53,855 nucleotides of DNA from Candidatus Parcubacteria bacterium (GTDB lineage: Bacteria > Patescibacteriota > Saccharimonadia > Saccharimonadales > Saccharimonadaceae), in the NCBI GenBank assembly GCA_023432475.1, contig JAEYUN010000011.1, positions 1 to 53,855 on the forward strand. Direction: 5' to 3'. The notes beneath the pieces are model-generated. The model ran no database searches, was not told the DNA's origin, and saw nothing but the letters and a program-made list of their open reading frames with translations. How positions within the stretch are numbered: position 1 is the first letter of the stretch; each line of letters opens with the position of its first letter. The position numbers and the translations under genes are program-made. Positions 5,121-36,428 of the stretch are shown piece after piece.

Positions 5121-5166
5121 CTAATAAAGCGAACACCCGCCCCCTGACCAGCGGGAGCGGTGTCGC
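5121..5166 (-). terminator. GC-rich hairpin plus TTTATT downstream of the 107-aa gene
   Basis: Minus strand: GCGACACCGC...GCGGGTGTTCGC (10 bp with 2 bulges, plus an inner CCC/GGG pair), followed by TTTATTAG. Confidence 0.55.
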
Positions 5167-5179
5167 TCGACCGGTCCGG

Positions 5180-5503
5180 TCAGGTAGCGGGATTGATGTC
5201 GAGCACATAGCCTAAGCCGTGCTCGATGGCGATGGCAGGAAGCATCTTTTTGGCAAGCTTAGCGTGGTTTTTGGCGGACGCCAATCTCTCCTCACGCGTA
5301 AAGTTACCGTATTTCATGCCATCTTTCGTCATGGACCTCAGCCAGTTAGCTGCCTCTGACTCATGTCCACGGCGGATTGCTTCAATGACTCGAGGGTCGC
5401 TCACACGACCGTGCTCATCGGTAAACCACTGGTGAGCATGGAAGGTAACATCCCTCTTGAGAGCTTCTTGCTGAAGCCTCTCCAAACTCCAACGTTTAGC
5501 CAT
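5180..5503 (-). CDS. hypothetical protein, 107 aa (orphan gene in the slot where adk/map usually sit)
   Basis: Clean ORF MAKRWSLERLQQEALKRDVTFHAHQWFTDEHGRVSDPRVIEAIRRGHESEAANWL... I recognise no motif. It has its own promoter and terminator. Confidence 0.65.
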   Translation of the reverse strand: MAKRWSLERLQQEALKRDVTFHAHQWFTDEHGRVSDPRVIEAIRRGHESEAANWLRSMTKDGMKYGNFTREERLASAKNHAKLAKKMLPAIAIEHGLGYVLDINPAT

Positions 5504-5509
5504 ATAGAT

Positions 5510-5538
5510 ATTATATAATTTAATAAACGCGAAATCAA
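5510..5538 (-). promoter_or_regulatory. sigma70-type promoter TTGATT-17-TATAAT, 6 nt from the ATG (leaderless geometry)
   Basis: Minus strand reads TTGATT tcgcgtttattaaatta TATAAT atctat ATG. The -35 box (5533-5538) overlaps the secY stop codon (5535-5537). No SD is present. Confidence 0.6.
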
Positions 5539-6962
5539 TAGTTGTCGTACGTAACCATCAGGGCGCGAGAGTTGACTTGGCGCAGGGTTTCAATGGCTAC
5601 TGAGACCACGATAAGTAGTCCGGTACCGCCAATGGCTAAGTTGGCTGCGTTGATACCCATTTGGGCAAAGATATACTCGAAGGCGAATGGCAACACGGCA
5701 ATCAGACCAAGCGCCAAAGAACCAAACAACGTTAAGCGGTTAACTGTGGTTGAGAGATATTTCTCAGTTTGCGGTCCTGGGCGAATACCCTCTATGAAAC
5801 CGCCTTGTTTTTGCAGACTTTCACTGATCTCGCTACTGTTGAATACTATGCCGGTGTAAAAGTAAGTAAACAGCACCACCAAAAGGAAGTATGTCGCAGG
5901 ATATATAAAGACTGTCCAGTCGGTGTTTGTCAGGTAAGTCGTGGCAGTTGGAGTTTGGAACCAGTTAACCAAGTTTTCGCCCAGACTGACCATATTGGGA
6001 TTGTCCTGCATGGTACGCAATAATTGCCCGACAAAGGCCGGCAGAGCCAGAAAGGCGACGGCGAATATAACCGGTATTACCCCGGCAGTGATAATTTTGA
6101 CTGGCAGAATGCTCTTAACACCCGAGTAGGCCGTATTACCGTGAACACGTTTGGCGTAGTTGATAGTTATGATACGCTGAGCTTCATTAATCTTAACCAG
6201 CAAATATAACACCAGTAAGCCGACCGCCAAAATGCCAAGTATCACCCAGAAAGCCACAGCATTGACGGGAACCGTAAACCAGTTAAATACGTGCAACATG
6301 TCAGCCTCGCTGCCAACAGTAACTAGCGAGCTCCAGACAGTCGAAAAAGTACTCGGCAACTGGGCAATAATACCGGCGAAAATCAGTAACGAGATACCGT
6401 TACCAATACCCTTTTCTGTAATTAACTCCCCTAACCACATCATGATGACCGCACCAGCCGTCATAGCGGTAACGGAAAGTACCCACTCAAACGGCGAAGT
6501 AGCGTCGAGCACGGCGGTATTGCCGGCGAGAACGGTTTGTCTAATAATCATGATAAAAGCAATCGACTGGAGCACTGCTAGAGGTACCGTAATCATACGG
6601 GTCCACTGGTTGATTTTCCGACGGCCAGATTCACCGTCCTTGTGAAGCTCTTCTAGGCGGGGTATAGCTTTAGTCAACAGCTGAGTGATAACCGAAGCGG
6701 TTATATATGGGCTGAGACCTACTAAAACTATACTCAAGCTCGCCAAAGCGCCACCAGTAAGCAGGTTCATGAAGCCGCCCAGGTCAGTCGAGCCAATAGC
6801 GGTATCGATAATTTGGCGCAGCGTAGTCGGTTCGGCAAGAGGAACCGGAATCTGACTTAGAAAACGGAACACCACTACCAAGCCAAGTACCGTGCCGATG
6901 CGCTTTAGCATGTCACGGTTTTTCAACGAACGAAAAATGTTCTTCCAGTTCATAAAGTTCAA
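5535..6962 (-). CDS. secY: preprotein translocase subunit SecY
   Basis: 475-aa multi-TM protein ...GLSPYITASVITQLLTKAIPRLEELHKDGESGRRKINQWTR... The start is either TTG at 6962 or ATG at 6953. Confidence 0.95.
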   Translation of the reverse strand: MNFMNWKNIFRSLKNRDMLKRIGTVLGLVVVFRFLSQIPVPLAEPTTLRQIIDTAIGSTDLGGFMNLLTGGALASLSIVLVGLSPYITASVITQLLTKAIPRLEELHKDGESGRRKINQWTRMITVPLAVLQSIAFIMIIRQTVLAGNTAVLDATSPFEWVLSVTAMTAGAVIMMWLGELITEKGIGNGISLLIFAGIIAQLPSTFSTVWSSLVTVGSEADMLHVFNWFTVPVNAVAFWVILGILAVGLLVLYLLVKINEAQRIITINYAKRVHGNTAYSGVKSILPVKIITAGVIPVIFAVAFLALPAFVGQLLRTMQDNPNMVSLGENLVNWFQTPTATTYLTNTDWTVFIYPATYFLLVVLFTYFYTGIVFNSSEISESLQKQGGFIEGIRPGPQTEKYLSTTVNRLTLFGSLALGLIAVLPFAFEYIFAQMGINAANLAIGGTGLLIVVSVAIETLRQVNSRALMVTYDNY

Positions 6963-7026
6963 TAAGCCCTTCTTTTACTCATAATAGATTACCAGTTATT
7001 GCAGTGTTTTGTCCAGGGAGATGCTA

Positions 7027-7060
7027 TTAATAAAGCACTCCGCGAAGAGTGCCTTATTAA
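7027..7060 (-). terminator. long hairpin between rplO and secY
   Basis: TTAATAAaGCACTC cgcgaa GAGTGCcTTATTAA: 13 bp with one mismatch; the U-rich stretch lies inside the 3' arm. Confidence 0.5.
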
Positions 7061-7086
7061 TAAGTAGCCTTTTAAAAACCTTGAGC

Positions 7087-7590
7087 TTATTTTTCTGCAG
7101 CGTTTTTTTCGGCTTTATCGATCTTTTTCAGGTTTTGACTAGCTGGGAGCTCGGCAACCGGCACGCTCTCAAACTTACCGCCTGCTTTTTCTATCTGTTT
7201 GATAGCCCCGGTACTAGCAGACTGGACTTTTATGACAGCCTTGCCGCTATATTCACCGCGAGCGATAATCTTAACGGTATGATACGGCGTAGCTATCAAA
7301 CCGGCGTCGTATAGCTTGGTCGAGTCAATTGTAGCGCCTTTTACTTCGTTCAGTTGACCAGTGTATACTACTTGAGCCTTGGCTCGAAGACTACGAAAGC
7401 CACGCTTTTTCGGAATACGCTGAACCAATACGCCTTGGCCGCCCATGAAAGTAGAGCCAAACTTCTTACCAGTGCGTGAGCCTTGGCCTTTGGTGCCACG
7501 ACCGGCAGTTTTACCCTGACCGGCAGCTATACCACGCCCAACACGTTTGCGGCTCTTGTTAGCAGTAAGGTTTAATTCGTTGTACTTCAT
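7087..7590 (-). CDS. rplO: 50S ribosomal protein L15 (extended C-terminus)
   Basis: MKYNELNLTANKSRKRVGRGIAAGQGKTAGRGTKGQGSR...; canonical L15 N-terminus. Confidence 0.96.
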   Translation of the reverse strand: MKYNELNLTANKSRKRVGRGIAAGQGKTAGRGTKGQGSRTGKKFGSTFMGGQGVLVQRIPKKRGFRSLRAKAQVVYTGQLNEVKGATIDSTKLYDAGLIATPYHTVKIIARGEYSGKAVIKVQSASTGAIKQIEKAGGKFESVPVAELPASQNLKKIDKAEKNAAEK

Positions 7591-9830: not shown

Positions 9831-10405
9831 TATTTATCTCCTTCTTTCTCAAACGGAATGCCAAACTTTTCTAAAAGCGGTCGGCTATGGGCTCGTTTTT
9901 CGGCGTCCATTACGAACGTGATCTGTAATCCGTGCAGGGTCTGAGTATCCTCAAAGTTAAGCTCTGGGAAGATTGACTGTTCCAAGATACCTAGGTTGTA
10001 GTTGCCGGCGCGGTCAAAACCTTTAGCCGGAGCACCGTGAAAATCACGAATCCGTGGCATAGCAACGTTGACTAGTCGATCCAAGAACTCGTACATCCGT
10101 TGACCGCGCAGTGTCACGCTGACGCCGACACGGTTCATACCTTTACGAATCTTGAAAGTTGCGATTGATTTTTTGGCCATACGATCAATTGGTTGTTGAC
10201 CAGTGATTTTACGTAAAGTGTTAACAACAACTTCATGGAAGTGTTTGTCATCTTTGTGCTTGCCGATACCAGAACTTATGACGATTTTCTGCAACTTCGG
10301 TACTTGATTGACGTTGTCTAATTCCAGCTCTTTAACCAGTTCGCCGACGAATTGGTCACGATAGAGAGCCTTAAGGCGTGGTTCGTATGTAGTTGTTTTA
10401 GCCAT
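9830..10405 (-). CDS. rplE: 50S ribosomal protein L5
   Basis: ...[40 protein letters not shown]... Confidence 0.97.
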
Positions 10406-10729
10406 TTAAGCGATCTCCTTTCCTGACTTCTTAGCGATACGGGTCTTTTTACCTTCTTTATTAAGCTTGTAACCGACTCGGCTGGTTTTGCTTTTAGCTT
10501 CGTCTACTACTAAAGCGACGTTACTGAGTGGCAAGCCTTTATGGACCTCTTTAGTGCCACCGCGCGGCTGTAAGCGATTAGGTCGGACATGACGCTTGAT
10601 TGAGCCAATGCCTTCGAGATAAACTACAGCCTTGTTGGCATCAGTACTTTCAACTTTGGCGACTTTGCCTTTGTGGCTTCCGGCTATGACTTTCACTAGG
10701 TCGCCTTTTTTAATACGGAGTGTAGACAT
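10406..10729 (-). CDS. rplX: 50S ribosomal protein L24
   Basis: MSTLRIKKGDLVKVIAGSHKGKVAKV...; KOW motif. Confidence 0.96.
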   Translation of the reverse strand: MSTLRIKKGDLVKVIAGSHKGKVAKVESTDANKAVVYLEGIGSIKRHVRPNRLQPRGGTKEVHKGLPLSNVALVVDEAKSKTSRVGYKLNKEGKKTRIAKKSGKEIA

Positions 10730-10730
10730 G

Positions 10731-11099
10731 TTAGAGTACCTCCGGTGCTAAGCTGATTATTTTGGCGTAACCAAGGTCACGCAGCTCGCGGGGAACAGGT
10801 CCGAAGACGCGAGTAGCACGTGGCTGCTTGCTATCGTCCACTATAACGGCGGCATTCTCATCGAAACAGATGGTGGAGCCGTCTTTGCGGCGAATCTTGT
10901 CGGTCGTACGAACGACGACGGCTTTAACTACTGATTTTTTCTTGACTGTACCGCTTGGGTTAGCGTCTTTAACTGTGGCGACGATAATATCGCCAACTCG
11001 GGCATAACGACGGCGAGTACCACCAAGTACGCGAATACAGAGAATCGACTTTGCACCACTATTATCAGCGACCTTTAGGCGTGATTCTTGTTGAATCAT
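10731..11099 (-). CDS. rplN: 50S ribosomal protein L14
   Basis: [44 protein letters not shown]... Confidence 0.98.
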
Positions 11100-11419
11100 A
11101 CTTCACCCTCCTCTTGGTTGGCCTCTTTTTTGTGCTCAAGCTCGGTGACGATCTCTTCTTCCTTAAGCTCAACTTGGGCGTGGCCGGCTTCGACAACACG
11201 GACTAATTTCCAGGTTTTGTTCTTGGAGAATGGACGAGATTCGACCAATTCGACAACGTCACCTTTCTTAGCCTGGTTATCTTCGTCATGCGCTGTATAT
11301 TTGCGAGTGACTGTGTATTGTTTGCCGTAGACGGGATGCGTCTCGCGGCTAGTTTGGGTCACGACGATGGTCTTGTCTTGAATATCAGACGTAACAACGC
11401 CGGTTAGTTTGACTGCCAT
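11096..11419 (-). CDS. rpsQ: 30S ribosomal protein S17 (acidic C-terminal extension)
   Basis: I prefer the ATG at 11419 ([12 protein letters not shown]...), 9 nt after AGGAGG. The ORF-track ATG at 11428 sits directly against the SD. Confidence 0.9.
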
Positions 11420-11420
11420 G

Positions 11421-11702
11421 TTAGGCATCCTCCTTTCCTGGGGCTAAACGTGCCTGCTCGACTATAACAGTTTGGATGCGGGCAATTAATTTCTTATAGG
11501 TGGATATGACATTCGGGTTCACTAGTTCACCGGCTGCCAGTGAACGTCGCGCGCTGGCTAGATCATCACGAACAGTCTTCAGGTCTGCAACCAAGGCTTT
11601 GATGTCTTTGTTGCGCAAGTCTTTAGTTTCGTAACTAACCTTAGTCGTTTTCACGCTAGCTTTTTTGTCAGCCACTTTGGTAGCTTTGGTTTCTTTAGCC
11701 AT
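11421..11702 (-). CDS. rpmC: 50S ribosomal protein L29 (Lys-rich N-terminal extension)
   Basis: ...LRNKDIKALVADLKTVRDDLASARRSLAAGELVNPNVISTYKKLIARIQT...; lies between rplP and rpsQ. Confidence 0.93.
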   Translation of the reverse strand: MAKETKATKVADKKASVKTTKVSYETKDLRNKDIKALVADLKTVRDDLASARRSLAAGELVNPNVISTYKKLIARIQTVIVEQARLAPGKEDA

Positions 11703-11703
11703 C

Positions 11704-12117
11704 TTAAGCTTCCTCCCTCATAATAAAGCGCGTCTTCACCGGTAACTTGTGTGCCGCTAGGCGCATAGCTTCGCGAGCAGTTACCTCATCGACACCCTTC
11801 ATCTCGAACATAACAGTACCGGTCTTAACTTTGGCAACGAAAAATTCTGGGTTACCTTTGCCGCTACCCATCTTAACGTCGAGCGGCTTTCTAGTGACTG
11901 GAGTGTGCGGGAAAATTCGAATCCAAATCTTACCACCGCGTTTAATGTAACGGGTCATGGCTTGACGAGCTGATTCTATCTGACGTGAAGTGATGCGTTC
12001 GTTACTCAAGCTTTGCAGACCGTAGTTACCAAAGGCTAAGTAGTTGGACCTAGTGGCGACGCCGTCGTTTTTGCCTTTACGAACCTTACGGAACTTGGTT
12101 TTCTTCGGTAGTAACAT
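11704..12117 (-). CDS. rplP: 50S ribosomal protein L16
   Basis: [35 protein letters not shown]... Confidence 0.98.
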
Positions 12118-12120
12118 GGC

Positions 12121-12750
12121 CTAGTTCCTCTCTCCCTTATAAATCCATACTTTGACACCAATAGTGCCTGCTGGGGTTTTAGCGGTAGCATTGTGGTAGT
12201 CGATGTCGGCTCGCAGAGTGTGGAGCGGCACCGAACCCTGGATCAATTTCTCGCGTCGACTCATTTCCGCACCGTTAAGACGACCGGCAACTTCGATACG
12301 AATCCCTTTAGCACCAGCATTCATGGTGTTCTGGGCCGACATTTTGGTGGCACGACGGAAGTTTATACGACGCTCTAACTGACGAGCGATGTTTTCAGCC
12401 ACGAGCTTGGCGGCTAATTCTGGGCGTTTAACTTCTTCGATATTGATACGTACAGGCATTTTGACAATTTTTTCAATGTCATCTTTAACTTCTTGAACAC
12501 CGGCACCACCGCGACCAATAACCACACCGGCTTTGCTGGTATGTATTGTTATGGTGACAAGGTTGGCGGAACGTTCAATCTCAATGCCATTGATAACTGC
12601 TCGAGTTTCGAAACGTTTCTCGACGGCTTTACGAATGGCGATGTCTTCTTGCAGCCATGCAACGTATTCTTTGCGTGTGGCAAACCAGCGAGAACGCCAG
12701 TTCTTGTTTACCTGCAAACGCATGCTTATAGGATTGACTTTTTGGCCCAT
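12121..12750 (-). CDS. rpsC: 30S ribosomal protein S3
   Basis: MGQKVNPISMRLQVNKNWRSRWFA...; KH domain GRGGAGVQEV. Confidence 0.98.
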   Translation of the reverse strand: MGQKVNPISMRLQVNKNWRSRWFATRKEYVAWLQEDIAIRKAVEKRFETRAVINGIEIERSANLVTITIHTSKAGVVIGRGGAGVQEVKDDIEKIVKMPVRINIEEVKRPELAAKLVAENIARQLERRINFRRATKMSAQNTMNAGAKGIRIEVAGRLNGAEMSRREKLIQGSVPLHTLRADIDYHNATAKTPAGTIGVKVWIYKGERN

Positions 12751-12751
12751 A

Positions 12752-13141
12752 TTATTTAACCTCTTCCTTCTTCACGCTGGCTTTCGGCGTCTTCTTCGGT
12801 TTAGCAGTGCCGGCGACGACTACGCGGACATTACTGCTCTTGCGTTGGAACGGTAAAGCGCGACCATGAGCAGCAGGGCGATAGCGTTTGAGACGTTCAC
12901 CCGCGGTAACTGCAATTGTTTGGATAATAAGGTCTTTTTCTTGCAGGCCATGGTTATTAGTAGCATTGCTACGAGCGCTTTCTATCACTTTAGCGATAGG
13001 CTTAGCGGCACGCTTGGGCGTATGCTCAAGTATAACCAGGGCTTCGGCAACCTTGCGACCACGTACCAGGCTGGCGACCAGGCTAACTTTGCGAGGGGCA
13101 AGACGAAGACCTTTGAGGTAAGCTATTGCTGTCTTGTCCAT
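12752..13141 (-). CDS. rplV: 50S ribosomal protein L22 (Lys-rich C-terminal tail)
   Basis: Start chosen at ATG 13141 (MDKTAIAYLKGLRLAPRKVSLV...), adjacent to the rpsS stop at 13143. The ORF-track extension to 13222 would overlap rpsS. Confidence 0.92.
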   Translation of the reverse strand: MDKTAIAYLKGLRLAPRKVSLVASLVRGRKVAEALVILEHTPKRAAKPIAKVIESARSNATNNHGLQEKDLIIQTIAVTAGERLKRYRPAAHGRALPFQRKSSNVRVVVAGTAKPKKTPKASVKKEEVK

Positions 13142-13142
13142 A

Positions 13143-13406
13143 CTACTTCGCCTTTCCGCCATGTTTACGGAATTTACGAGTCGGGCTAAACTCACCGAGT
13201 TTATGACCAACCATATTTTCACTTATATAAACCGGTACGTGCATTCGTCCGTTGTGGATAGCAATAGTGCGACCAACCATCTCGGGTGAGATAGTGCTGG
13301 CGCGTGCCCAGGTCTTGATAACAGTACGATCGTCTGAGCCGAGAGCCGCCACTTTTCTGGCAAGCTTGGCGTCAACGAACGGGCCTTTTTTGAGACTTCG
13401 GCTCAT
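13143..13406 (-). CDS. rpsS: 30S ribosomal protein S19
   Basis: [19 protein letters not shown]...[33 protein letters not shown]. Confidence 0.98.
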
Positions 13407-13407
13407 A

Positions 13408-14250
13408 TTAACCTCTCTTCCTCTTCGCGTCGTGGCGACTTCTTACAATCATATTATTAGTACTCTTGCGAGTGCGTGTTCGATAACCTAGCGTCAGTTG
13501 ACCCCATGGTGTCCGTGGCGCCTTGCCGGTGCCGTGACGACCACCGTCACCACCACCGTGGGGGTGATCAGCGGCGTTCATAACAACACCACGCACCGAC
13601 GGGCGAATGCCCATACGACGTTTACGGCCAGCCGAACCGATTTTGACATTTTGGTGTTGTTCATTACCGACCACACCTATAGTAGCCATGCACTCCAAAC
13701 GGAATTTACGAACTTCACCACTGGGCATACGGACAAGAGCATGGTCACCCTCTTTAGCCATTAACTGAGCTTTGGTGCCAGCTGATCGAACAGCTTGAGC
13801 GCCTTTACCGGGCTGAAGCTCAATAGCGTATACCTGAGTACCAGTCGGAATATTTGCAAGCGGCAGGCGGCTGTCAGGCTCGACGGGTGCCTTAGCACCG
13901 CTCTTAATCTTTGCACCGACAGACATACCTTTGCTGGCGATGATGTAGTGATAAAGGCCATGTTGGTCTTTAACGCGAGCGATCCTGGCAGAACGGTTAG
14001 GATCATATTCGATATGTTCAACTACGCCTTCAAAACCTTCACCGAGGTTGTGATTTACTAAGCGATAAAACTGCTTAACACCGGCGCCACGATGACGAGT
14101 TGTGATTCGCCCTTGGTTATTACGCCCGGCGGTTGATTTTTTGACTTTGACAAGACTCTTGACAGGCTTCTTGGTAGTGATATCCGAGAAATCCTGGCTG
14201 GTCATGCCGCGTCGGCCGTTAGTAGTTGGTTTGTATGCTTGAATAGCCAT
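13408..14250 (-). CDS. rplB: 50S ribosomal protein L2
   Basis: [21 protein letters not shown]...[28 protein letters not shown]. Confidence 0.98.
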
Positions 14251-15932: not shown

Positions 15933-16799
15933 TCACAACCTGGAGTAGGCAGCGCCAATTTGGGACTGCGTGGCACTTAAAGCCGTCTCAAAATCCTCAG
16001 CTGAAGCTCTAATATCTCCGTACGCGCCGGATAATTTATCCCTGGCACTAACAAAGCTAGCGCTGTCGCGTGCGTTAGTGGCAGCAACCAGTTCTATCCA
16101 TAAACCCCAAACAACCCGAACTCGGTTGCGTAGTAGTTCGTGAGTCGGCTGAAAAGATGGCGAAACACTCAGTGAACCAAGGCTATCATTTAACGCCTGC
16201 CAGTTGTCTCTCTGGGATGATAAGACTGCAAACCTATCGGGTACCGACTCAGTGATCGGTCCAAGCAGGGGCCCTAATTCCTCTAAATATGCGGTTTGAA
16301 ATTGTAAATCACTAAGGGCGGCTATAAAAGCTTCAACGCTGCTTCGATAAGCCGTGCAGTTGTCATAAGCTTGTTTAGAGCGCGGATATAAAGAGGCGAA
16401 ATTGTCTAAAAAACCCCCTGGACACAGTGATTTGCTGGAAGACTCAAATTTTTGAATGAACTCTCCAATCAACCGGGAACTAAGTTGAGGCTGTTTAAGC
16501 GCTGGGGCGATATCCTGCGTAACTATTTCCTGAACACGAGAACGTGTCGCGCTAACAGACGACTCGTATCCTAGACGCACAATTTCAAGTACCAGAAGCA
16601 TCAATAGTACAAGCGCAACCAAGCTTGTTATCAGCCAGCGCCAAGGCAACCGAATTTTTCTTCTCGAGCGATGTAGTGGCTGCGTTGGTGTTTTAGGCAA
16701 TGGCGCTCGGTCGACCACAGGCGTAAGTGACACTTCAGGCTTGGCGTCATCTTCGACTATCTGTTGATGGCCACGGCGATTAGTGAAAATCTCGCTCAT
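15933..16799 (-). CDS. hypothetical membrane-anchored protein, 288 aa (one TM, helical ectodomain)
   Basis: ...RRKIRLPWRWLITSLVALVLLMLLVLEIVRLGY... is followed by a long non-repetitive soluble region. The start overlaps the upstream 73-aa gene's stop (ATGA). Confidence 0.7.
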   Translation of the reverse strand: MSEIFTNRRGHQQIVEDDAKPEVSLTPVVDRAPLPKTPTQPLHRSRRKIRLPWRWLITSLVALVLLMLLVLEIVRLGYESSVSATRSRVQEIVTQDIAPALKQPQLSSRLIGEFIQKFESSSKSLCPGGFLDNFASLYPRSKQAYDNCTAYRSSVEAFIAALSDLQFQTAYLEELGPLLGPITESVPDRFAVLSSQRDNWQALNDSLGSLSVSPSFQPTHELLRNRVRVVWGLWIELVAATNARDSASFVSARDKLSGAYGDIRASAEDFETALSATQSQIGAAYSRL

Positions 16800-17017
16800 T
16801 CGGCAGCTCCGTTGAGCCAGATAGGCACCGCTACGTTGGGCACTTCAACCTGGCGGAGCAATTCAAGCGGTTGGTTCACTAAGGGTTGAAGGCATAAATC
16901 CATAGCCTCACAGGTTTTAACTCGCTCGGCACCAACCGCGCTAAAGCCTAGTAGTACAACCACTACTATAGCTGCAACACCGGCTATTGGTATGAAACGA
17001 GGAAAGCGCTGTTTCAT
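16796..17017 (-). CDS. hypothetical small membrane-anchored protein, 73 aa
   Basis: Start chosen at ATG 17017 (MKQRFPRFIPIAGVAAIVVVVLLGFSAVG...). The ORF-track start at 17077 would overlap the divergent vanY-like gene. Confidence 0.55.
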   Translation of the reverse strand: MKQRFPRFIPIAGVAAIVVVVLLGFSAVGAERVKTCEAMDLCLQPLVNQPLELLRQVEVPNVAVPIWLNGAAE

Positions 17018-17025
17018 ACTTCTAC

Positions 17026-17033
17026 TGTATACT
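17026..17033. promoter_or_regulatory. shared palindromic -10 (TGTATACT) for two divergent, apparently leaderless genes
   Basis: Plus strand: TATACT (17028-17033), 7 nt, then ATG 17041. Minus strand: TATACA (17031-17026), 8 nt, then ATG 17017. Only 23 nt separate the two start codons. Confidence 0.4.
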
Positions 17034-17040
17034 ACTAAGT

Positions 17041-17856
17041 ATGAAAAAACGAGTCGCGTTAATGGTTGTTTTAGCAACCGTAGTATGTGGCTTAGTCCTC
17101 ATCTATCTAATGGCTAAACCGGCCTTGGCTCCAAAGGTAAATCGTCAGCCGGAGCTGCTCCAAAATACCCCTAGAAAAATAACACTCACTCTACCTGGCG
17201 CTTCACCGATTGACGCTCCAGTAGAAGATTATAATCACCCTTCTAGCGTGTGGGTTGTCGTCAGTAAAGACCACCCGCTGAGCGAACAACAATACCGAGC
17301 TGACGATCTTCAGCTAATTACCTCCGTCAAGACACGCCCTGGTAAGTCAGCCGAGGAACGATCACTGCGAGCGGTTCTCGTAAAAGACCTTAATGATTTA
17401 TTTGCAGCCGCCCAACAGGCTGGTTATGACTTTATGATCAGTTCAGGGTACAGATCTTATAACACGCAGGCCAGTCTGTATAATAGTTATGTTGGTCGGT
17501 CTGGTGAAATGGTCGCAAATACATATAGCGCCAAGCCTGGCCAAAGCGAGCACCAAACCGGACTAGCCTTTGACATTCGTCTGTCTTCTGGCGCCTGCTA
17601 CCTGGATATTTGCTTTGGTGACATGCCGGCTGGCCGCTGGCTGGCCGAGGAAGCTACGAATTATGGCTTTATCATCCGCTACCCGGCTGACAAAACAGCT
17701 ATAACCAAGTATCAATATGAACCGTGGCACCTGCGGTACGTCGGCCAGTCCTTAGCCAAGGCTCTTAAAAAGAGTGGCTTAACTCTCGATGAAGCTCGTC
17801 CATATCTGCAACATGCCCGAGACGAACTTATTAAAGAAAACTTAATTAGTGAGTAA
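17041..17856 (+). CDS. D-alanyl-D-alanine carboxypeptidase, VanY / peptidase M15B family, membrane-anchored (copy 1)
   Basis: N-terminal TM segment, then SGYRSYNTQASLY...SEHQTGLAFDI...EPWHLRYVG, the Zn-binding H-x-x-x-x-x-x-D and (E/D)xWH motifs of VanY-type peptidases. Confidence 0.85.
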   Translation: MKKRVALMVVLATVVCGLVLIYLMAKPALAPKVNRQPELLQNTPRKITLTLPGASPIDAPVEDYNHPSSVWVVVSKDHPLSEQQYRADDLQLITSVKTRPGKSAEERSLRAVLVKDLNDLFAAAQQAGYDFMISSGYRSYNTQASLYNSYVGRSGEMVANTYSAKPGQSEHQTGLAFDIRLSSGACYLDICFGDMPAGRWLAEEATNYGFIIRYPADKTAITKYQYEPWHLRYVGQSLAKALKKSGLTLDEARPYLQHARDELIKENLISE

Positions 17857-17862
17857 GTTTTT

Positions 17863-18684: not shown

Positions 18685-18734
18685 ATTCTCAACATACTCT
18701 GCTAGTTATACTAGAATTAAGTGATATGATATGT

Positions 18735-23948: not shown

Positions 23949-24671
23949 TTAGGCCGCAGCCGAAACGTTATCGATACTTGAGGGTTGGTGTTTACGAATA
24001 GCGGGATGTATTAAGTGGGTTTTGGAAAACCGCCTAACCTTGAGTAATGCAGCCAGAACCTTTTTAACTTCTTCTATATTCATGCCGCTAAGAACCTCGC
24101 GTCCCGGTAGTAGATTTAATTCAGGCTCTCGCATGCGTTCTATTTTGCGGCTTAAGGCATCTAGACAGAGAGAGTTAACGCGCCGAGTAATCGCATGTGG
24201 CGATAGTGGAAGATGCTCGTCGATAATAGCCTTTAACCGCTTTGCTTCTCCGACTTCATAGACTGCTTGGCGCATCACTTCTATCGAAGGTCTGCGTGGC
24301 AATTCAAATATAAAGTGAGAGAAGTTATGCATTTGACGTGGTAAGTTCACTTTAAGAAATGACAACCCTCTAAACGCGCTGCCGACATCGCCTTCATCTT
24401 TGAATCTGACAACCGTATAGTCGGCTTTTGGCGTGGCGAGATGATGTTCGTCAAAATCACCGGTCCATACATAATTTGCAGTTTTCATTTGGCCGAGAAG
24501 CCGCCCTATCATTATTTCAGGCCGCGGCATTCCAAACTCGTCTATCGGGGCGGTGAGTTTATTGTTCAATACCACTTTACCGTTCTGGTCGACATCGAGT
24601 ATATCTGTATGAGCATGAAGGGGCGCCAGGTTATGAAGGTTACGAATATATCGCAACCTTTCTTCCGTCAT
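23949..24671 (-). CDS. hypothetical protein, 240 aa, inserted between rpsG and fusA
   Basis: Clean ORF with host-like composition. Contains ...WTGDFDEHHLATPKADY...(about 30 aa)...VNLPRQMHNFSHFIF..., a spacing loosely reminiscent of an HNH/beta-beta-alpha-Me motif. This is my reading only, not a confirmed family. Confidence 0.7.
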   Translation of the reverse strand: MTEERLRYIRNLHNLAPLHAHTDILDVDQNGKVVLNNKLTAPIDEFGMPRPEIMIGRLLGQMKTANYVWTGDFDEHHLATPKADYTVVRFKDEGDVGSAFRGLSFLKVNLPRQMHNFSHFIFELPRRPSIEVMRQAVYEVGEAKRLKAIIDEHLPLSPHAITRRVNSLCLDALSRKIERMREPELNLLPGREVLSGMNIEEVKKVLAALLKVRRFSKTHLIHPAIRKHQPSSIDNVSAAA

Positions 24672-25860: not shown

Positions 25861-25917
25861 AAATAGCGAAAGCCCACCGAGGAGCATCACCGGAGCTGAG
25901 CTCAACGGTTGGCTTTC
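25861..25917 (-). terminator. hairpin plus short T-run after the 100-aa orphan gene
   Basis: Minus strand: GAAAGCCaACC (28-nt loop) GGTgGGCTTTC, then GCTATTTTC. Confidence 0.45.
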
Positions 25918-25931
25918 GGTGGACAAATTCG

Positions 25932-26234
25932 TCACTTGAGTGGAAGGCCTGTTGCCAACCACACTTGCCGGATGCGCTCGCCGATAACCCGTGCCATAGG
26001 GTGGGATATCACCCTGCCCTTTACCGGGTAAACGTAGAAGTTGTAGAAACCCTGCCGGTGATCATCAGCCCTAACCTCTACTCGGTCGACGACGTCGGCC
26101 ATGCGAACACGTAAGGTTTCGGCGACTCGCTGCATGCCTTCCAGGGTGACTTCCGGCACAATGTCAGCATACGGAGGCTTACGCTTGATTGTCATCTGCA
26201 CAAGCACCCGCTTCCCGTTGTATGTGACGTCCAT
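25932..26234 (-). CDS. hypothetical protein, 100 aa (orphan, GC-rich)
   Basis: MDVTYNGKRVLVQMTIKRKPPYADIVPEVTLEGMQRVAETLRVRMADVVDRVEVRADDHRQGFYNFYVYP... All 5 Lys codons are AAG. A GGGAG SD lies 5 nt before the ATG. Confidence 0.65.
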   Translation of the reverse strand: MDVTYNGKRVLVQMTIKRKPPYADIVPEVTLEGMQRVAETLRVRMADVVDRVEVRADDHRQGFYNFYVYPVKGRVISHPMARVIGERIRQVWLATGLPLK

Positions 26235-26274
26235 AAGAGCTCCCTTCGGGGTAGATTTGAGATCTTACATATAT

Positions 26275-26303
26275 ATTACATCATAGTTTGACTTAATATA
26301 CAA
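26275..26303 (-). promoter_or_regulatory. promoter TTGTAT-17-TGTAAT for the 100-aa orphan gene
   Basis: Minus strand: TTGTAT (26303-26298) attaagtcaaactatga TGTAAT (26280-26275), then ATA. The -35 overlaps the 3' arm of the rpoC terminator. Confidence 0.5.
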
Positions 26304-26353: not shown

Positions 26354-29300
26354 TTAGGCGTCAAAATCTTCGTCTTCGACCAAGTCGGGAGCTGGCACAA
26401 GGTTGCGCGCGCCGGTACCGACTGGAATCTTCCGGCCGATAATGACGTTCTCTTTCAAGCCATAGAGACTATCGACACGGCCAGTCACGGCAGCATTGAT
26501 AAGCACCCTAGTAGTGTCTTGGAACGACGCGGCAGATAGGAAGCTATCGGACCAGATCGACACTTTAGTGATACCAAGCAGCAGTTGCGTGAATTGAGCC
26601 GGAGCTTTCCCGTCAGCCGTTAAGCTACGGTTCTCTTCAACAACCGACGCTTTGGAGACAATGTCGCCGGTTACGAATTGACTATCACCCGGTTCTTCGA
26701 TTTGAACGCGGCTAAACATCTGTCGAACGATGATCTCAAGGTGTTTAGCGTCGACACGCTCACCTTGAGCGGCGTAAATCCGCAGGATCTCGTTGATGAT
26801 ATAGCGCTGGGTCGCTTCGATGCCTTTTAGACGCATCAGGTCGTGCAAGTTGATTGAACCGTTGGTGAGGCGGTCGCCTGCTTCGACTTCGTCGCCATCG
26901 ACCACCATAAGTTGGCGATAGTTCGGAATCTCGTAGCGAATTGGCGTGTCGGTATTACCGGTAATAACCACTTCCTTATCCGTGACCTCAACGGTACCAT
27001 CGAATGGTGCAATGACCGGCATAGACTCGTCGTCATTACTGGCAATGACATCACCCGCTATTAGCTCAGTGCCACTTGCCACCCGAACGATTTGGCCTTC
27101 TAGTTTGAGGCGTTCAACACGGCCTTTTTTAGGTGTGACCTGTACAACATACTTGTCACCGTCTTCCCAAACCTGAACCAGTCCATTAACTTCAGTTAGG
27201 AACGCTTCACCCTTCGGGCTGCGAGCTTCCAGAAGCTCATCAACGCGGGGTAGACCCTGGGTAATATCACCAGCGCCGGCCGCACCACCTTTATGGAAGT
27301 TGGACAGAGTCAACTGAGTACCCGGTTCACCGATAGACTGAGCAGCGATAACGCCGACTGGCTGTGAGTCAGCTACTAACTGACCAGTTGCCAAGTCCAT
27401 ACCGTAACTCTTGCGCGGCACGCCGCGGAGTGCTACGGCCGAGATCACGCTCATGATCGTAACTTGGTCAATTTTCTCGTCGGCCTGGATAGCATCGGCA
27501 ATAGCTTGAGTTACCAAGTCGCCAGCTTTAGCGTAACCTGGGACGTCGCTCGCTAAGTAACGACCATACAAACGGGCACTAAAGTCCACCATGGTTTCTT
27601 CGGTTTCACGTCGGTAAATCGTGTAGCCTGTGTCGTCACCTTCTTCGTCCTCAACTGTGAAGACGTCTTGGCTGACGTCGACCAAGCGACGCGTTAGGTA
27701 GCCGGAGTCGGCAGTCTTAAGGGCTGTGTCAATCAAACCTTTGCGCGAAGCTCGAGTTGCCACGAAAGCCTCAAGTGTCGAAAGACCTTTTTTGAAGCTT
27801 GAACGAATCGGCAGCTCAATTTCGCGACCACTGGCATCAACGACCACGCCAATCATACCGGTAGCCCATTTGAGGTTACTTAGAGTACCACGAGCACCTG
27901 AACCCACCATGACGGCAATAGAAGTGTCTTCGTGTTGTAAGCGTTCTGCTAGAATTTCATCGACTTTTTTATCGACATTGCGCCAGGTCTCAATAGTTAA
28001 GTTACGGCGCTCGTCGTTAGTGATGAGACCATCTTCATATTGTGTAGAAATAGTCGCGGTGCGTTCGTCACCTTCGTCAATAGCTTTATCAACAAGTGGG
28101 ACATCGAAATAGTCGGTCATACCAGTTGAGACCGATGAAGACGTGGCGTATTTCAGTGCCAGATCCTTGATATCGTCGGCGCTTTGGGCTGTCTGCTCGC
28201 TACCATAACGCTCAAAAATTCGAGCCATTACCTTGGAGAGAGCTTTTTTAGTCATGACGTCTTCGATATATGGGAAATCTTCCGGCAGAACTTCGTTAAA
28301 TATCGCTCGGCCAAGTGTGGTAGTACGAACTTCCCCCTTAGTAAAGACACGAATCGGAGTCTGCAAGCGAATAACTTCACTTTGCTGGAACGCCAAAACC
28401 GCTTCGGCAACATTACTAAACGGACGGAGTTTATCGCTCTGAGCCAAAGGTTTAGCGTAGGTCAGGTAATAGCAACCGAGTACGATGTCCTGAGCAATAT
28501 TCAAGATTGGCGAACCATCTGCCGGTTTTAGTAAGTTGTTAGTGGCACTCATCAAGTCGCGGGCCTCAGCTTGAGCGGCATCGGACAGCGGCAAGTGAAC
28601 GGCCATCTGGTCGCCATCGAAGTCAGCGTTGAAACCTTTACAGACTAACGGGTGCAGCTGAATAGCTTGGCCTTCTATAAGCTTAGGCTGGAAAGCCTGG
28701 ATGCTCAAACGGTGGAGCGACGGTGCCCGGTTTAGAAGGACGTATTTGCCTTCAATAACCGAGTCAAGCGCATCCCAGACTGCCGTATCACCCGCTTCTA
28801 TTAGGCGAGTTGCACTACGGATATTGTGAGCAAACTCGTTCTCAAGCAGCCAGCTAATAACGAACGGCTTAAATAGTTCTAGAGCCATTTGTTTCGGCAA
28901 GCCACACTGATTTATCTTGAGTTCCGGACCGGCTACGATAACCGAACGACCAGAGTAGTCGACACGTTTACCGAGTAGGTTTTGACGGAAACGACCTTGT
29001 TTACCTTTCAGCATATCGCTCAGCGACTTGAGTTTGCGTCGACCGCCCACCGAGCTGACAGCCCGGCCGCCGCGTGCAGCTGAGTTGTCAATCAAAGCGT
29101 CGACAGCTTCTTGCAGCATACGCATCTCGTTGCGCCTGATAACTTCAGGGGCATTTAGGTCAAGCAACTTCTTTAGGCGGTTGTTGCGATTGATAACACG
29201 TCGGTATAGGTCATTAAGGTCTGAGGTAGCAAAACGACCACCTGTTAACTGAACCATCGGACGAAGATCCGGTGGGATGACTGGTAGAACCGTCATACAC

Positions 29301-33647: not shown

Positions 33648-33794
33648 CACACATCAGTTTAAACATCTATTTTCAGCCTTTAGTGATATTCGTCTGGCGC
33701 CGAAGTTCACTAGGGGTGGCTCTGCAACGCAAAAACGCCTCGCCAATAGCGTGCGTCGACAGTGAGCCAGCCTATACAATCTTCATTAATTACT

Positions 33795-33823
33795 ACTCTA
33801 GTGGCTGGTCTAAATTATGTCAA
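33795..33823 (-). promoter_or_regulatory. candidate rpoB promoter TTGACA-17-TAGAGT (a second TTGACA lies 25 bp upstream at 33843-33848)
   Basis: Minus strand: TTGACA (33823-33818) taatttagaccagccac TAGAGT (33800-33795). This implies a 5' UTR of about 210 nt. Confidence 0.45.
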
Positions 33824-33858
33824 GTATTTATAGCTTAAATGTTGTCAAATTAAAACAG

Positions 33859-33917
33859 GCTCCTGCAGTATACTCCGGTCATCGCCTCGCGATGCCATCT
33901 CTATATACTACAGGAGC
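33859..33917 (-). terminator. nested hairpin after the two-gene orphan module
   Basis: Outer arms GCTCCTGcAGTATA (33859-33872) / TATACTaCAGGAGC (33904-33917), 13 of 14 bp. Inner stem CATCGC ctc GCGATG (33880-33894). On the minus strand it is followed by CTGTTTTAATTT. Confidence 0.6.
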
Positions 33918-33937: not shown

Positions 33938-34051
33938 TCAGTCGTAGTCGATCATCGGCGGGAACTCGTCGCTTCTGTCGAACTTGAACTTCAGCCACAA
34001 CCACGGGTGCCGCCACCACGTCGGCGTCGGCGTGATTTCAGGACCATACAT
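33938..34051 (-). CDS. hypothetical Trp-rich micro-protein, 37 aa
   Basis: Not in the ORF track. Own translation: MYGPEITPTPTWWRHPWLWLKFKFDRSDEFPPMIDYD. A strong GGGAGGAG SD lies 7 nt upstream of ATG 34051, and the gene starts 25 nt after the upstream gene's stop. Confidence 0.55.
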   Translation of the reverse strand: MYGPEITPTPTWWRHPWLWLKFKFDRSDEFPPMIDYD

Positions 34052-34076: not shown

Positions 34077-34304
34077 CTACGCCTCGTCTTGATACCCTTC
34101 TTTGGGCAGGCGGCGATGGCCGTGACGCACCACGGACCACGCCTTGTAGACCCCGTAACGCCACATCATGGGCAGCTTTTTGTAAAGCTTGCGTCCCAGA
34201 ACGGCTAGGGCATCCCAGAGAACACTCCGGGCTATTAGTGTCCCGTCCTTCTTGCGCAGCTGGGCTGCGACATCACGGAACGTGACTTCACTTGAATTAT
34301 TCAA
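34077..34304 (-). CDS. hypothetical basic protein, about 75 aa (orphan, GC-rich)
   Basis: TTG at 34304 lies 4 nt after GGGAGG. The ORF-track start at 34337 is also TTG but has no SD. Sequence (L/M)NNSSEVTFRDVAAQLRKKDGTLIARSVLWDALAVLGRKLYKKLPMMWRYGVYKAW... Confidence 0.5.
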   Translation of the reverse strand: MNNSSEVTFRDVAAQLRKKDGTLIARSVLWDALAVLGRKLYKKLPMMWRYGVYKAWSVVRHGHRRLPKEGYQDEA

Positions 34305-34399
34305 ACGTCCTCCCAAGCTCGAGTGACCGTGATCCAAAAACCGATAACCCGTTTATGCGAGCCATCGACCTTTCTAGGTAAATATTATAACACTTATAG

Positions 34400-35019: not shown

Positions 35020-35056
35020 AAATCAAAATTAGCACTCATGCAAGTTGAGTGCTAAT
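35020..35056 (-). terminator. canonical rho-independent terminator just upstream of clpP
   Basis: Minus strand: AGCACTCA acttgca TGAGTGCT (8-11 bp), followed by AATTTTGATTT. Confidence 0.7.
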
Positions 35057-35073
35057 AATTGTGCCTATGGGAA

Positions 35074-35096
35074 GCGCCCGCCGTAACGGCGAGCGC
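35074..35096 (-). terminator. GC-rich hairpin without U-tract after the 67-aa TM gene
   Basis: GCGCcCGCCG taa CGGCGaGCGC. Confidence 0.45.
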
Positions 35097-35107
35097 TGAC
35101 ACCCGGT

Positions 35108-35311
35108 TCAGTGACGTATTGGGCGGCGAACGCCGCGAAGCTCTCGGAGGATTAACCAGATGCCAATCCCGATTATGAGCGCTAGAGCAACCAGCCCGAA
35201 CACGTTGACCATTTGGGGGAGACTCAGGCTCCCCAACCAGGTCCAAACCCTCGGCGCATGCTGAGCTAGCGCCAAGATCATTAGAACGGCCAAGAAAGCC
35301 TTGAATTTCAC
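35108..35311 (-). CDS. small membrane protein, 67 aa, 2 hydrophobic helices (GTG start)
   Basis: (V/M)KFKAFLAVLMILALAQHAPRVWTWLGSLSLPQMVNVFGLVALALIIGIGIWLILRELRGVRRPIRH. A GGGAGA SD is present, downstream of a consensus promoter. Confidence 0.6.
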   Translation of the reverse strand: MKFKAFLAVLMILALAQHAPRVWTWLGSLSLPQMVNVFGLVALALIIGIGIWLILRELRGVRRPIRH

Positions 35312-35348
35312 CTTTTCTCCCTATGTCGAGGAACGAGTGTACTTTTCT

Positions 35349-35377
35349 AGTATAGCATAAGTACTTTGTGTTGTCAA
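35349..35377 (-). promoter_or_regulatory. consensus promoter TTGACA-17-TATACT
   Basis: Minus strand: TTGACA (35377-35372) acacaaagtacttatgc TATACT (35354-35349) agaaaa GTACAC. Confidence 0.7.
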
Positions 35378-35387
35378 TATATGGTGA

Positions 35388-35410
35388 GCGCCCCGGAAAT
35401 TCCGAGGCGC
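35388..35410 (-). terminator. GC-rich hairpin after the 84/86-aa TM gene pair
   Basis: GCGCCcCGG aaatt CCGaGGCGC on the plus strand (8 of 9 bp); no U-tract. Confidence 0.4.
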
Positions 35411-35424
35411 TTGACACCCGTACT

Positions 35425-35685
35425 TCAAAGTTGCTTGAGGTCACGGCGGCGACCAGCCTCCAGAGCCACATATACGGTGGCGATCAGACTGGCGTTCAAC
35501 AAGACAGACACAGTCCCTGCTCTGTCTGGTTCAGGAACCCAGGCTGTTACCACGATCGGCCAACCTAGAGCCATCACAGCGACCAGCCAGGCGACGGTAT
35601 AAATGCGGTGCTTAACCGCAAACCATACAGCCGCGAGACAGACCAGCGTCGGGCTAGCGTAATACGCCAGCAGCGACAGAGTCAT
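35425..35685 (-). CDS. small membrane protein, 86 aa, about 3 hydrophobic helices
   Basis: MTLSLLAYYASPTLVCLAAVWFAVKHRIYTVAWLVAVMALGWPIVVTAWVPEPDRAGTVSVLLNASLIATVYVALEAGRRR... Its ATG overlaps the upstream gene's stop (ATGA). Confidence 0.6.
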   Translation of the reverse strand: MTLSLLAYYASPTLVCLAAVWFAVKHRIYTVAWLVAVMALGWPIVVTAWVPEPDRAGTVSVLLNASLIATVYVALEAGRRRDLKQL

Positions 35686-35933
35686 GATGGATCCTCCCTA
35701 GTCTTCCTGCCAGCACGCCCAGCCATGACCAGCAGAGCTACAAGACAGCACGCGATAGCGACTGCTGTCAGATTCTGCCAGGATCGACCCACGAGCAGCC
35801 CGATGAGCAGGAATGCATCCAGCAGGCTACGCTGGAAGAGATTCAGCACGACAGCGAACGCAATCGCCGACGTAGACCACCTGATCAGGTTGGTCTTGTT
35901 TCTTTCGACGAACGCGTGGTAGCGCTTGTACAT
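35682..35933 (-). CDS. small membrane protein, 83 aa, 2 hydrophobic helices
   Basis: ATG at 35933 lies 5 nt after GGAAGGAG. Sequence MYKRYHAFVERNKTNLIRWSTSAIAFAVVLNLFQRSLLDAFLLIGLLVGRSWQNLTAVAIACCLVALLVMAGRAGRK... Confidence 0.6.
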   Translation of the reverse strand: MYKRYHAFVERNKTNLIRWSTSAIAFAVVLNLFQRSLLDAFLLIGLLVGRSWQNLTAVAIACCLVALLVMAGRAGRKTREDPS

Positions 35934-35986
35934 CACTTCTCCTTCCAGGAGATTGGCTGATTTTTTAGGTACAGGTGTACTTTTTT

Positions 35987-36015
35987 ATTATAGCACGGTT
36001 GGCGTTATTTGTCAA
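35987..36015 (-). promoter_or_regulatory. consensus promoter TTGACA-17-TATAAT
   Basis: Minus strand: TTGACA (36015-36010) aataacgccaaccgtgc TATAAT (35992-35987) aaaaaa GTACAC. Confidence 0.75.
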
Positions 36016-36095
36016 TCTATTAACCAGATTTTAGAAGGGTTGCGCCCGCCAGTCCGAAGACTGGCGGGTAGCGTTACCGAGGCGGTTTAACTTGA

Positions 36096-36341
36096 CTAGG
36101 TAATAGTTTCGAGCTTCTTGAGTGTTCGCCAGAAGGCGAAGATGAAGATGACGAGAACAATCATCACACCTATCACCCACTGGGCCCCCGCCCAAGCTAT
36201 TACCGCAACCACTCCCACTGGGAATGATGAAAGCCCGAGGACAAAACGAGCCCTCCCGTCAGCCGTCAAGTATGTCAGAAGCAGTAGTATGAATGCTACT
36301 GCACTTGTCAGGACGGCTAATACCAACCAAGCAGCGACCAT
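36096..36341 (-). CDS. small membrane protein, 81 aa, 2-3 hydrophobic helices
   Basis: MVAAWLVLAVLTSAVAFILLLLTYLTADGRARFVLGLSSFPVGVVAVIAWAGAQWVIGVMIVLVIFIFAFWRTLKKLETIT. A GAGAGGA SD lies 8 nt upstream. Confidence 0.6.
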   Translation of the reverse strand: MVAAWLVLAVLTSAVAFILLLLTYLTADGRARFVLGLSSFPVGVVAVIAWAGAQWVIGVMIVLVIFIFAFWRTLKKLETIT

Positions 36342-36399
36342 GTCAAAATTCCTCTCGGCGACGTCGATGTCGCATAGAACTACGGTAAACGCACTTTTT

Positions 36400-36428
36400 A
36401 CTATAGTCGTTTAGGATAACCGCTGCAA
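36400..36428 (-). promoter_or_regulatory. promoter TTGCAG-17-TATAGT, 3 nt downstream of the tig stop
   Basis: Minus strand: TTGCAG (36428-36423) cggttatcctaaacgac TATAGT (36405-36400). Confidence 0.55.

Follow-up and report, generated by a model that had tools for sequence, protein, structure and literature searches.

The 53,855-nt stretch analysed here (referred to as the window; positions 1 to 53,855 of contig JAEYUN010000011.1, Candidatus Parcubacteria bacterium, Saccharimonadaceae) has a GC content of 48.6% and carries the alpha/spc/S10/str/rpoBC super-locus on its minus strand, followed by clpP, tig and hisS. A preliminary description of this DNA had placed small open reading frames (ORFs) in six gaps of the super-locus, and all of these are present in the ORF lists at the coordinates given there. 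The present analysis shows eleven genuine small protein-coding genes in these gaps, organised in eight transcription units, among them five soluble proteins (A–E), a microprotein (E37) and four small membrane proteins (F1–F4). The existence of these genes, their conservation, purifying selection and atypical composition, and the variation of gap contents with phylogenetic depth are evident from the comparisons presented below. The genes are as follows.

Gene A, 5180-5503, minus strand: secY/infA gap, 107 amino acids (aa)
Gene B, 18805-19083, plus strand: between VanY and rpsJ, 92 aa, GTG start
Gene B2, 19149-19439, minus strand: adjoins rpsJ, 96 aa, outside the GC-rich set
Gene C, 20042-20281, plus strand: rpsJ/tuf gap, 79 aa
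Gene D, 25932-26234, minus strand: rpoC/rpsL gap, 100 aa
Gene E37, 33938-34051, minus strand: second cistron after E, 37 aa
Gene E, 34077-34304, minus strand: directly after clpP (clpP/rpoB gap), 75 aa, TTG start
Gene F1, 35108-35311, minus strand: tig/clpP gap, 67 aa
Gene F2, 35425-35685, minus strand: tig/clpP gap, 86 aa
Gene F3, 35682-35936, minus strand: tig/clpP gap, 84 aa
Gene F4, 36096-36341, minus strand: directly after tig, 81 aa

Scaffolds of the European Nucleotide Archive metagenome assemblies LEMO22-1 (SAMN17062672 and SAMN17062673) and of several Logan assemblies are 99.8–100% identical to the window. The best named matches to its trigger factor carry the annotation 'Candidatus Saccharibacteria bacterium', which identifies the host as an uncultured member of the Saccharibacteria (TM7). 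The comparison comprised near-identical strains (99–100% identity), all of which were inspected for the presence of the units, and a co-occurring sister species (contigs L015, L018/L019, L023/L024 and L105), whose housekeeping genes display 79–87% nucleotide identity to the window. Loci of more distant Saccharibacteria, with rpoC identities to the window of 87.5% (L021), 82% (L025), 72% (L026) and 66% (L027), were also compared.

The sister species holds A, C, D, E, E37, F3 and F4, as well as the N-terminal part of F2, at the same positions. The ratio of non-synonymous to synonymous divergence (dN/dS) is 0.18 for A (83% aa identity), 0.14 for C (81%; in L018, where the gene caller overlooked it), 0.19 for D (P0019, 58–59%, in the same rpoC/rpsL gap), 0.25 for F3 (83%) and 0.40 for F4 (87–87.5%), indicating purifying selection on all five. 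For E and E37, purifying selection is apparent from the counts of changes and from the conserved core: the orthologue of E (P0176, 84%), located between clpP and rpoB, differs by 17 synonymous and 16 non-synonymous changes, its core being unchanged, and E37 retains 36 of its 37 residues, with six synonymous changes and a single non-synonymous one. The N-terminus of F2 is 88% identical to that of the sister species at the aa level, and in another sample the orthologue of B (P0017, 82%) is preceded by the same VanY gene. Judged by these substitution patterns, nearly all of the ORFs are real genes.

The strains further distinguish the sense from the antisense frames. D differs from its counterpart in strain L005, where a stop codon interrupts the antisense ORF, by eight synonymous and five non-synonymous changes; in the same strain a 13-nt deletion just past the stop codon of C removes the start of the antisense ORF preferred by the gene caller and leaves C intact. 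Scaffold L001 is identical to the window apart from 36 differences, 24 of which lie within 300 nt (35419-35719) covering F2 and the end of F3; in F2 this tract contains nine synonymous and seven non-synonymous changes. Another five differences, all synonymous, fall within 55 nt of rpoC (28613-28667). Both clusters look like short recombination tracts.

Presence/absence polymorphism among close relatives, as anticipated in the preliminary description, was not observed, since no unit is missing from any near-identical strain, or from the sister species wherever its contigs reach. The nucleotide identity to the sister species is 0.86–0.94 for A, E, E37, F2, F3 and F4, as compared to 0.79–0.82 for secY, clpP, tig and hisS. 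C (0.81) lies slightly under tuf (0.87), and D (0.60) far below its neighbours. Most units are no less conserved than their housekeeping neighbours at the nucleotide level, which argues against ongoing amelioration, and the units are not fresh insertions because the sister species inherited them as well. On this sequence evidence the genes of this lineage are regarded as old, vertically inherited and selectively maintained.

The composition of the genes was assessed from the G+C content at third codon positions (GC3), conditional on amino-acid composition, with 54 host genes as the reference. C, E37, D and F3 are clear outliers, with z-scores of 5.4, 4.2, 3.5 and 3.5, respectively, and their GC3 was reached by none of about 10,000–13,500 host windows of the same length. 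Lower z-scores were recorded for F1 (2.7), B (2.6), E (2.5), F2 (2.0), A (1.9) and F4 (1.2, nearly host-like), while the composition of B2 is host-like (0.9). The earlier claim of a composition unlike that of the host is borne out as a GC3 excess that is significant in C, D, E37 and F3, moderate in B, E and F1, and weak in A, F2 and F4. The counts on which the claim had been based were recovered, namely the 60-nt spot counts of G+C (37/60, 37/60 and 28/60, all exactly) and the lysine codons (AAG in 8/8 in C and 5/5 in D, AAA in 7/8 in rpsJ). The excess does not extend past the ORFs, which have 50–57% GC within the gaps as against 38–46% in the non-ORF remainder, and the proposed frames follow the order GC1 > GC2 < GC3 for the three codon positions. 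It is also seen in the sister species: GC3 is 0.77–0.78 in the window and 0.70 in the sister for C, which has the strongest excess, 0.84–0.86 and 0.76 for E37, and 0.68 and 0.65 for F3.

Each unit had been credited with a near-consensus promoter and a Shine-Dalgarno sequence (SD) of its own. The sequence supports promoters, starts (SD or leaderless) and hairpin terminators that belong to the units themselves; F2 has no promoter of its own and A has no SD. Strong SDs precede ten of the eleven genes, and are listed for B, C, D, E, E37 and F1–F4. The -10 string said to be common to three cassettes, TGTAATATA, does occur three times at the reported places against 0.34 occurrences expected, a number reached in 1 of 100 shuffles, and the motif common to the promoters of B, C and D extends to 14 nt, TRTGWTGTAATATA. 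In B this motif lies at 18730-18743, with GAGGAGG as the SD; in D it lies at 26267-26285 (TATGATGTAATATA), with the SD GAAGGGAG. The promoter of C (19972-20003, plus strand) consists of TTGACA, a 19-nt spacer and TGTTGTAATATA, and adjoins the divergent rpsJ promoter (19964-19936, minus strand). The promoter of E, TGtTATAAT at 34384-34392, directly follows the clpP stop codon and is combined with the SD GGGAGGA; E37 has the SD GGGAGGAG.

In the tig/clpP gap, F3 possesses a perfect promoter at 35987-36015 (TTGACA-17-TATAAT with TG) and F1 one with 11/12 consensus positions at 35349-35377 (TTGACA-17-TATACT with TG). The two promoter regions (35967-36015 and 35329-35377) share the -35 element, the extended -10 element and the first 12 transcribed nt, ATTGACAA...TGCTATAMTARAAAAGTACAC. 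F2 overlaps F3 by ATGA and is translationally coupled to it, and F4 has the SD GAGAGGAA and a weak promoter candidate at 36400-36429. Gene A carries TATAAT at 5510-5515; it is probably leaderless, as it has no SD and the TATAAT ends 6 nt upstream of the ATG (5503). The start of B2 is built similarly, with TGTTATACT, 8 nt and then ATG without an SD, so that both B2 and A (5504-5515) look leaderless, and leaderless starts may be common in this organism.

The 3' flanks fold into strong hairpins in 8/8 cases, with z-scores of -4.0 to -5.4 as compared to shuffled controls. The hairpins of A (5136-5191, z -4.7), B (about 19102-19140), D (25867-25918) and E37 (33859-33917, followed by UUUUAAUUU; z -5.2) have partial U-tracts, and the statement that most of the GC-rich hairpins lack one applies to C (20318-20357, z -5.4), F1 (35073-35097), F2 (35387-35411) and F4 (36045-36068). 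Two canonical terminators mentioned in the preliminary description were located again, one A/T-flanked, bidirectional and shared with tuf (20369-20399), and the other beyond the F1 hairpin (35028-35056). The hairpins of F1 and F2 have common flanks (GGGUGUCA-GCGC ... GCGCU-CCAUA) around different stems, and this flank motif does not form a dispersed repeat within the window. The resemblances between the F1 and F3 promoters and between the F1 and F2 hairpins suggest that expression modules may have been duplicated around unrelated ORFs.

None of the small proteins passes the library threshold in Pfam, PHROGs, NCBIfam or PADLOC, in agreement with the earlier remark that they contain no recognisable motif. 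Of the five queries A–E in a full HMMER search of 1.84 billion representative proteins, C and E returned only self-matches, D one relative besides its own cluster representative, and B two, P0017 (82%) and P0022 (44%); clusters at 90% identity have one to three members. B, C, D and E thus have no detectable homologue outside a narrow lineage, unlike A, which has about 28 relatives at 30–69% identity. A scan of genome contigs with C, and with a 240-aa gene at 23949-24671 described below, recovered no relative, the species apparently being absent from the GTDB representatives. A 96-aa ORF in the tuf/rpsJ gap of L008 was considered as a relative of C and discarded (BLASTP E = 0.12, another region). 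Paralogy of B, C and D, as might be supposed from their shared motif, was likewise rejected, with hhalign probabilities of 0.2–1% and nothing found in an all-vs-all BLASTP of the small proteins.

A is predicted to be soluble and all-helical by AlphaFold2, with a predicted local distance difference test score (pLDDT) of 95.8, yet no Foldseek match with E < 1 to the Protein Data Bank (PDB), no meaningful hit in a PDB-sequence profile search and no Pfam model were found for it. The whole of A aligns to the C-terminal ~100 residues of two larger proteins, P0036 and P0049 (292–299 aa; E ~1e-6 to 1e-3), whose N-termini match Phage_30_3 (PF08010) above the Pfam cutoff and also NADAR (PF08719). One of these two fusion proteins falls into a cluster with a candidate division WWE3 protein (candidate phyla radiation), the only named member of the family, and a stand-alone member at locus L108 adjoins genes for a LexA-like repressor, Wzy and EEP. 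The occurrence of the family in other genomic contexts suggests that at least A was imported or relocated. As modelled, A represents an undescribed family and an uncharacterised domain, with a confidently predicted fold that has no solved relative.

When C, D, E and B were folded as one chain, B and D were predicted as soluble two-layer alpha/beta domains (pLDDT ~78 and ~70, respectively), and C and E remained below 60. A functional assignment for the B and D folds was rejected, as Foldseek gave generic ferredoxin-like or ACT-like matches only (E >= 0.016). C is soluble and convergent with tuf, E is basic and soluble, and E37 is a Trp-rich microprotein. Hydropathy analysis indicates two or three hydrophobic segments in F1–F4 and three in B2.

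Alignment to related genomes, which the preliminary description had proposed as a check, revealed no presence/absence difference of the units among strains or in the sister species, but gaps that are filled differently or empty at greater depth. L025 and L027 preserve the complete order hisS-tig-clpP-rpoB-rpoC-rpsL-rpsG-fusA-tuf-rpsJ, and L026 and L021 preserve it up to the point where each locus ends (tuf and rpoC, respectively). The gap lengths are as follows.

tig/clpP: window 1441 nt, L021 1094, L025 75, L026 711, L027 106
clpP/rpoB: window 821 nt, L021 755, L025 729, L026 532, L027 1051
rpoC/rpsL: window 692 nt, L025 261, L026 1620, L027 99; in L021 rpsL was not found in the 344 nt after rpoC

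The differences in gap length and in ORFs at genus-to-family depth indicate that small genes are gained and lost at the junctions. L025 and L027, where the gaps measure 75–261 nt, lack the F cluster and D, and the clpP/rpoB gap spans 530–1050 nt in every relative examined, with unrelated ORFs in each genome. For D, which is 58% identical in the sister species as compared to 94% for RpoC, non-detection one genus away is expected even for true orthologues. The tig/clpP gap of L021 contains three membrane-protein ORFs, one pair of which has an ATGA overlap like that of F3 and F2, and a two-cistron unit follows clpP; the similarity of these analogues to F and E is marginal and at most suggestive (E 0.005–0.03 in a tiny search space). 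B2 is conserved across the wider lineage, with 51–70% aa identity in L007–L013 and L025 and 37% in L027.

Larger differences were noted at other junctions. L026 carries a 2.6-kb insert between fusA and tuf (20210-22819 of L026) with GC3-rich ORFs and one ORF judged by eye to be RadC-like, and further insertions of 1.6–1.8 kb at rpoC/rpsL and rpsG/fusA. In the window, the 240-aa gene at 23949-24671 (minus strand), located between rpsG and fusA and not mentioned in the preliminary description, has no Pfam match and a host-like composition; it is replaced by a non-homologous 201-aa gene in the sister contig L018 and is absent from L025, and is the clearest replacement polymorphism in the locus. 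rplC and rpsJ are separated by 3.7 kb (15933-19439), occupied by two VanY-type peptidases, B, the membrane protein B2 and two genes without a Pfam match (288 and 73–93 aa). VanY and B2 are likewise found here in L007–L013 and L025, some of them with a PGA_cap gene, indicating that the split S10 operon is a trait of the lineage.

Three additional features of the locus were recorded. rpmJ (ribosomal protein L36; 4589-4705, minus strand, 38 aa, GTG start) lies between infA and rpsM in a segment that matches the sister species at 96.5% identity. The rpsJ 5' leader (19839-19935) is 89–96% identical across species whose rpsJ coding sequence is 82–87% identical; it contains an inverted repeat (19862-19881 / 19898-19917), has no Rfam match, and is a candidate regulatory leader of the S10 operon. 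The region 33700-33860, comprising the rpoB promoter and the start of a leader of about 220 nt, is 95–98% identical to the sister species and exceeds the flanking coding DNA in this respect.

Taken together, it is probable that the units are lineage-restricted accessory small genes of one genus-level lineage of Saccharibacteria, vertically inherited and kept by selection. Their inheritance would date from before the split of the two sampled species. Each unit would occupy the space that separates the terminator of a core operon from the promoter of the following one, and would carry its own signals, namely an extended -10 promoter, a strong SD (or a leaderless start in A) and a GC-rich stem-loop at its end. 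Operon junctions would then be the sites at which a self-contained extra gene leaves co-transcription intact, and the junction contents would turn over among distant relatives while the operons stay because extra genes fit there without breaking co-transcription. The proposal that operon boundaries serve as insertion sites is in this form retained as regards the autonomous units and the turnover at genus-to-family depth, and given up as regards recency and polymorphism in close relatives. As to origin, an old capture from a moderately GC-richer gene pool, with the GC-rich codons retained afterwards, is the reading we prefer. Envelope or host-contact functions for F1–F4 and regulatory or adaptor functions for the soluble proteins are our best guesses.

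Several points weigh against this interpretation. The sister contig ends before F1, which has no orthologue support and is the least-supported gene of the set, and the expression of the units is predicted from sequence signals. If old imports had simply ameliorated, a synonymous divergence below that of the neighbours combined with a GC3 that has stayed high in the two species would not be expected; the combination may reflect selection acting on the nucleotide sequence, biased gene conversion, or gene flow between the co-occurring species. (No tract of 99–100% identity indicating very recent exchange with the sister species was found.) Gain and loss were polarised informally from few relatives, and the analysis covers 54 kb of the genome.

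A native origin, in which the genes are de novo or very fast-evolving orphans whose GC3 is kept by mRNA-level selection (structure or stability) or by GC-biased gene conversion, is rather unlikely, even though it accommodates several of these observations. Synonymous divergence (dS) is below that of the neighbours for A, F3 and F4, the nucleotide identity of E37 is above that of its neighbours, and GC3 is high in both species. The divergence of D relative to rpoC (58% vs 94%), with homologues undetectable one genus away, and the marginally similar units of L021 in the same place and with the same architecture are consistent with rapid evolution in situ, and short recombination tracts are common in the locus. 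However, GC-rich genes would hardly be expected to arise from the AT-rich non-ORF gap DNA (38–46% GC), the short gaps of L025 and L027 genuinely lack the F cluster and D, and A is a member of a wider family that occurs in other genomic contexts.

The preliminary description had favoured repeated, fairly recent and moron-like capture of promoter-bearing genes, with an actinobacterial host of high GC content, or its phages, as the possible source, an explanation that now appears improbable. Saccharibacteria live on Actinobacteria, so that a donor would be at hand, and the autonomous promoters and terminators, the GC3-rich codon usage (unlike that of the host for B, C, D, E, E37, F1 and F3, z 2.5–5.4), the differing junction contents among genera and the fusA/tuf insert of L026 with its RadC-like ORF are all in line with such a process, as are the two relatives in which the A domain is fused to phage gp30.3/NADAR, one of them clustering with the WWE3 protein. 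The genes are, however, present in the sister species under purifying selection, and their presence is invariant among strains; this speaks against repeated recent acquisition, as does the lack of any phage or mobile-element trace. PHROGs gave no match for any small protein, tblastn against 50,697 phage genomes gave none, and neither did IMG/VR scans with C and D. An actinobacterial homologue of B–E was not found among the 1.84 billion representatives, and the high-GC actinobacterial or phage source is accordingly not upheld; B–E have 0–2 close relatives, and the named relative of A belongs to WWE3. The absence of flanking direct repeats was confirmed, the repeats detected being the shared promoter motifs. 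No prophage gene, integrase or transposase was noticed in the window when its ORF list was read by eye, no systematic scan having been made, and the only tRNA of the window lies at 39746. A typical actinobacterium has 65–72% GC, and the GC3 of 0.6–0.8 is well under what would be expected from such a genome, pointing, as a rough estimate, to a donor of about 55–60% GC. B, C and D are also mutually unrelated. A literature search on Saccharibacteria, horizontal gene transfer and GC content returned nothing bearing on these genes.

A more far-reaching version, which we consider very unlikely, would treat the junctions as landing pads for micro-gene cassettes built from reusable promoter/terminator modules, captured from a GC-richer pool (the actinobacterial host, its phages or other Patescibacteria) and kept as host-interaction or translation/transcription-associated factors. 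The modules would be TRTGWTGTAATATA in B, C and D, ATTGACAA..TGCTATAMTARAAAAGTACAC in F1 and F3, and the related hairpins of F1 and F2, and selection on the nucleotide sequence would explain the high GC3 and the low dS.

That the segments are structured RNAs or operon leaders, with ORFs as by-products of a low stop-codon density, is hardly credible: long ORFs on both strands of several segments, strong local RNA structure adjoining the ORFs and the conserved leaders upstream of rpsJ and rpoB would fit it, but no gap matches Rfam at the gathering threshold or even at E <= 1, the substitutions are frame-dependent with an excess of synonymous changes and a dN/dS well under 1, the antisense frames break in other strains, the strong SDs stand at the correct spacing, and A has a confident predicted fold.

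If the units are indeed lineage-restricted genes kept by selection, their significance lies first in the size of the genome that maintains them. Little dispensable DNA is expected in the tiny genomes of Saccharibacteria, which makes eleven conserved junction genes with promoters of their own, in the best conserved locus of the chromosome, reasonable candidates for lineage-specific biology, with envelope or host-attachment proteins or small regulators as candidate roles. They also show the extent of annotation misses, since the gene call for C is on the wrong strand in two public contigs and F1, E37 and rpmJ are uncalled. Small genes that are confined to one lineage, unusual in composition and located at operon borders are a familiar phenomenon already, and the most concrete leads are the undescribed domain family of A and the conserved 37-aa microprotein E37.

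Among known systems, the genes resemble ORFans in being short, near-orphan and atypical in composition, in their position between conserved operons, and in a protein evolution faster than that of their neighbours, D relative to rpoC being the example. Classical ORFans are AT-richer than their own genome and often prophage-linked, whereas the genes described here are GC3-richer, have no phage linkage and mostly equal or exceed the flanking core genes in DNA conservation. With phage morons they share a self-contained promoter-ORF-terminator unit, autonomous at the sequence level, within a conserved gene order and with a composition unlike that of the flanks. They differ from morons in lying among ribosomal, RNA-polymerase and chaperone genes (secY/infA, VanY/rpsJ, rpsJ/tuf, rpoC/rpsL, clpP/rpoB and tig/clpP) and not inside a phage or prophage genome, in having no phage match, and in showing no presence/absence difference in close relatives, such differences appearing only in relatives with an rpoC aa identity of <=87%.

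F1–F4 (67–86 aa) and E37 (37 aa), with their own SDs, fall in the size class of the small membrane proteins and microproteins of E. coli and other bacteria. Like the intergenic small proteins catalogued in E. coli, F1, E37 and C are easily overlooked by annotation. Neither F1–F4 nor E37 has a sequence relation to any described family. A, in turn, corresponds to the C-terminal domain of the Phage_30_3/NADAR proteins (PF08010 and PF08719), occurring here as a stand-alone protein without the enzyme part.

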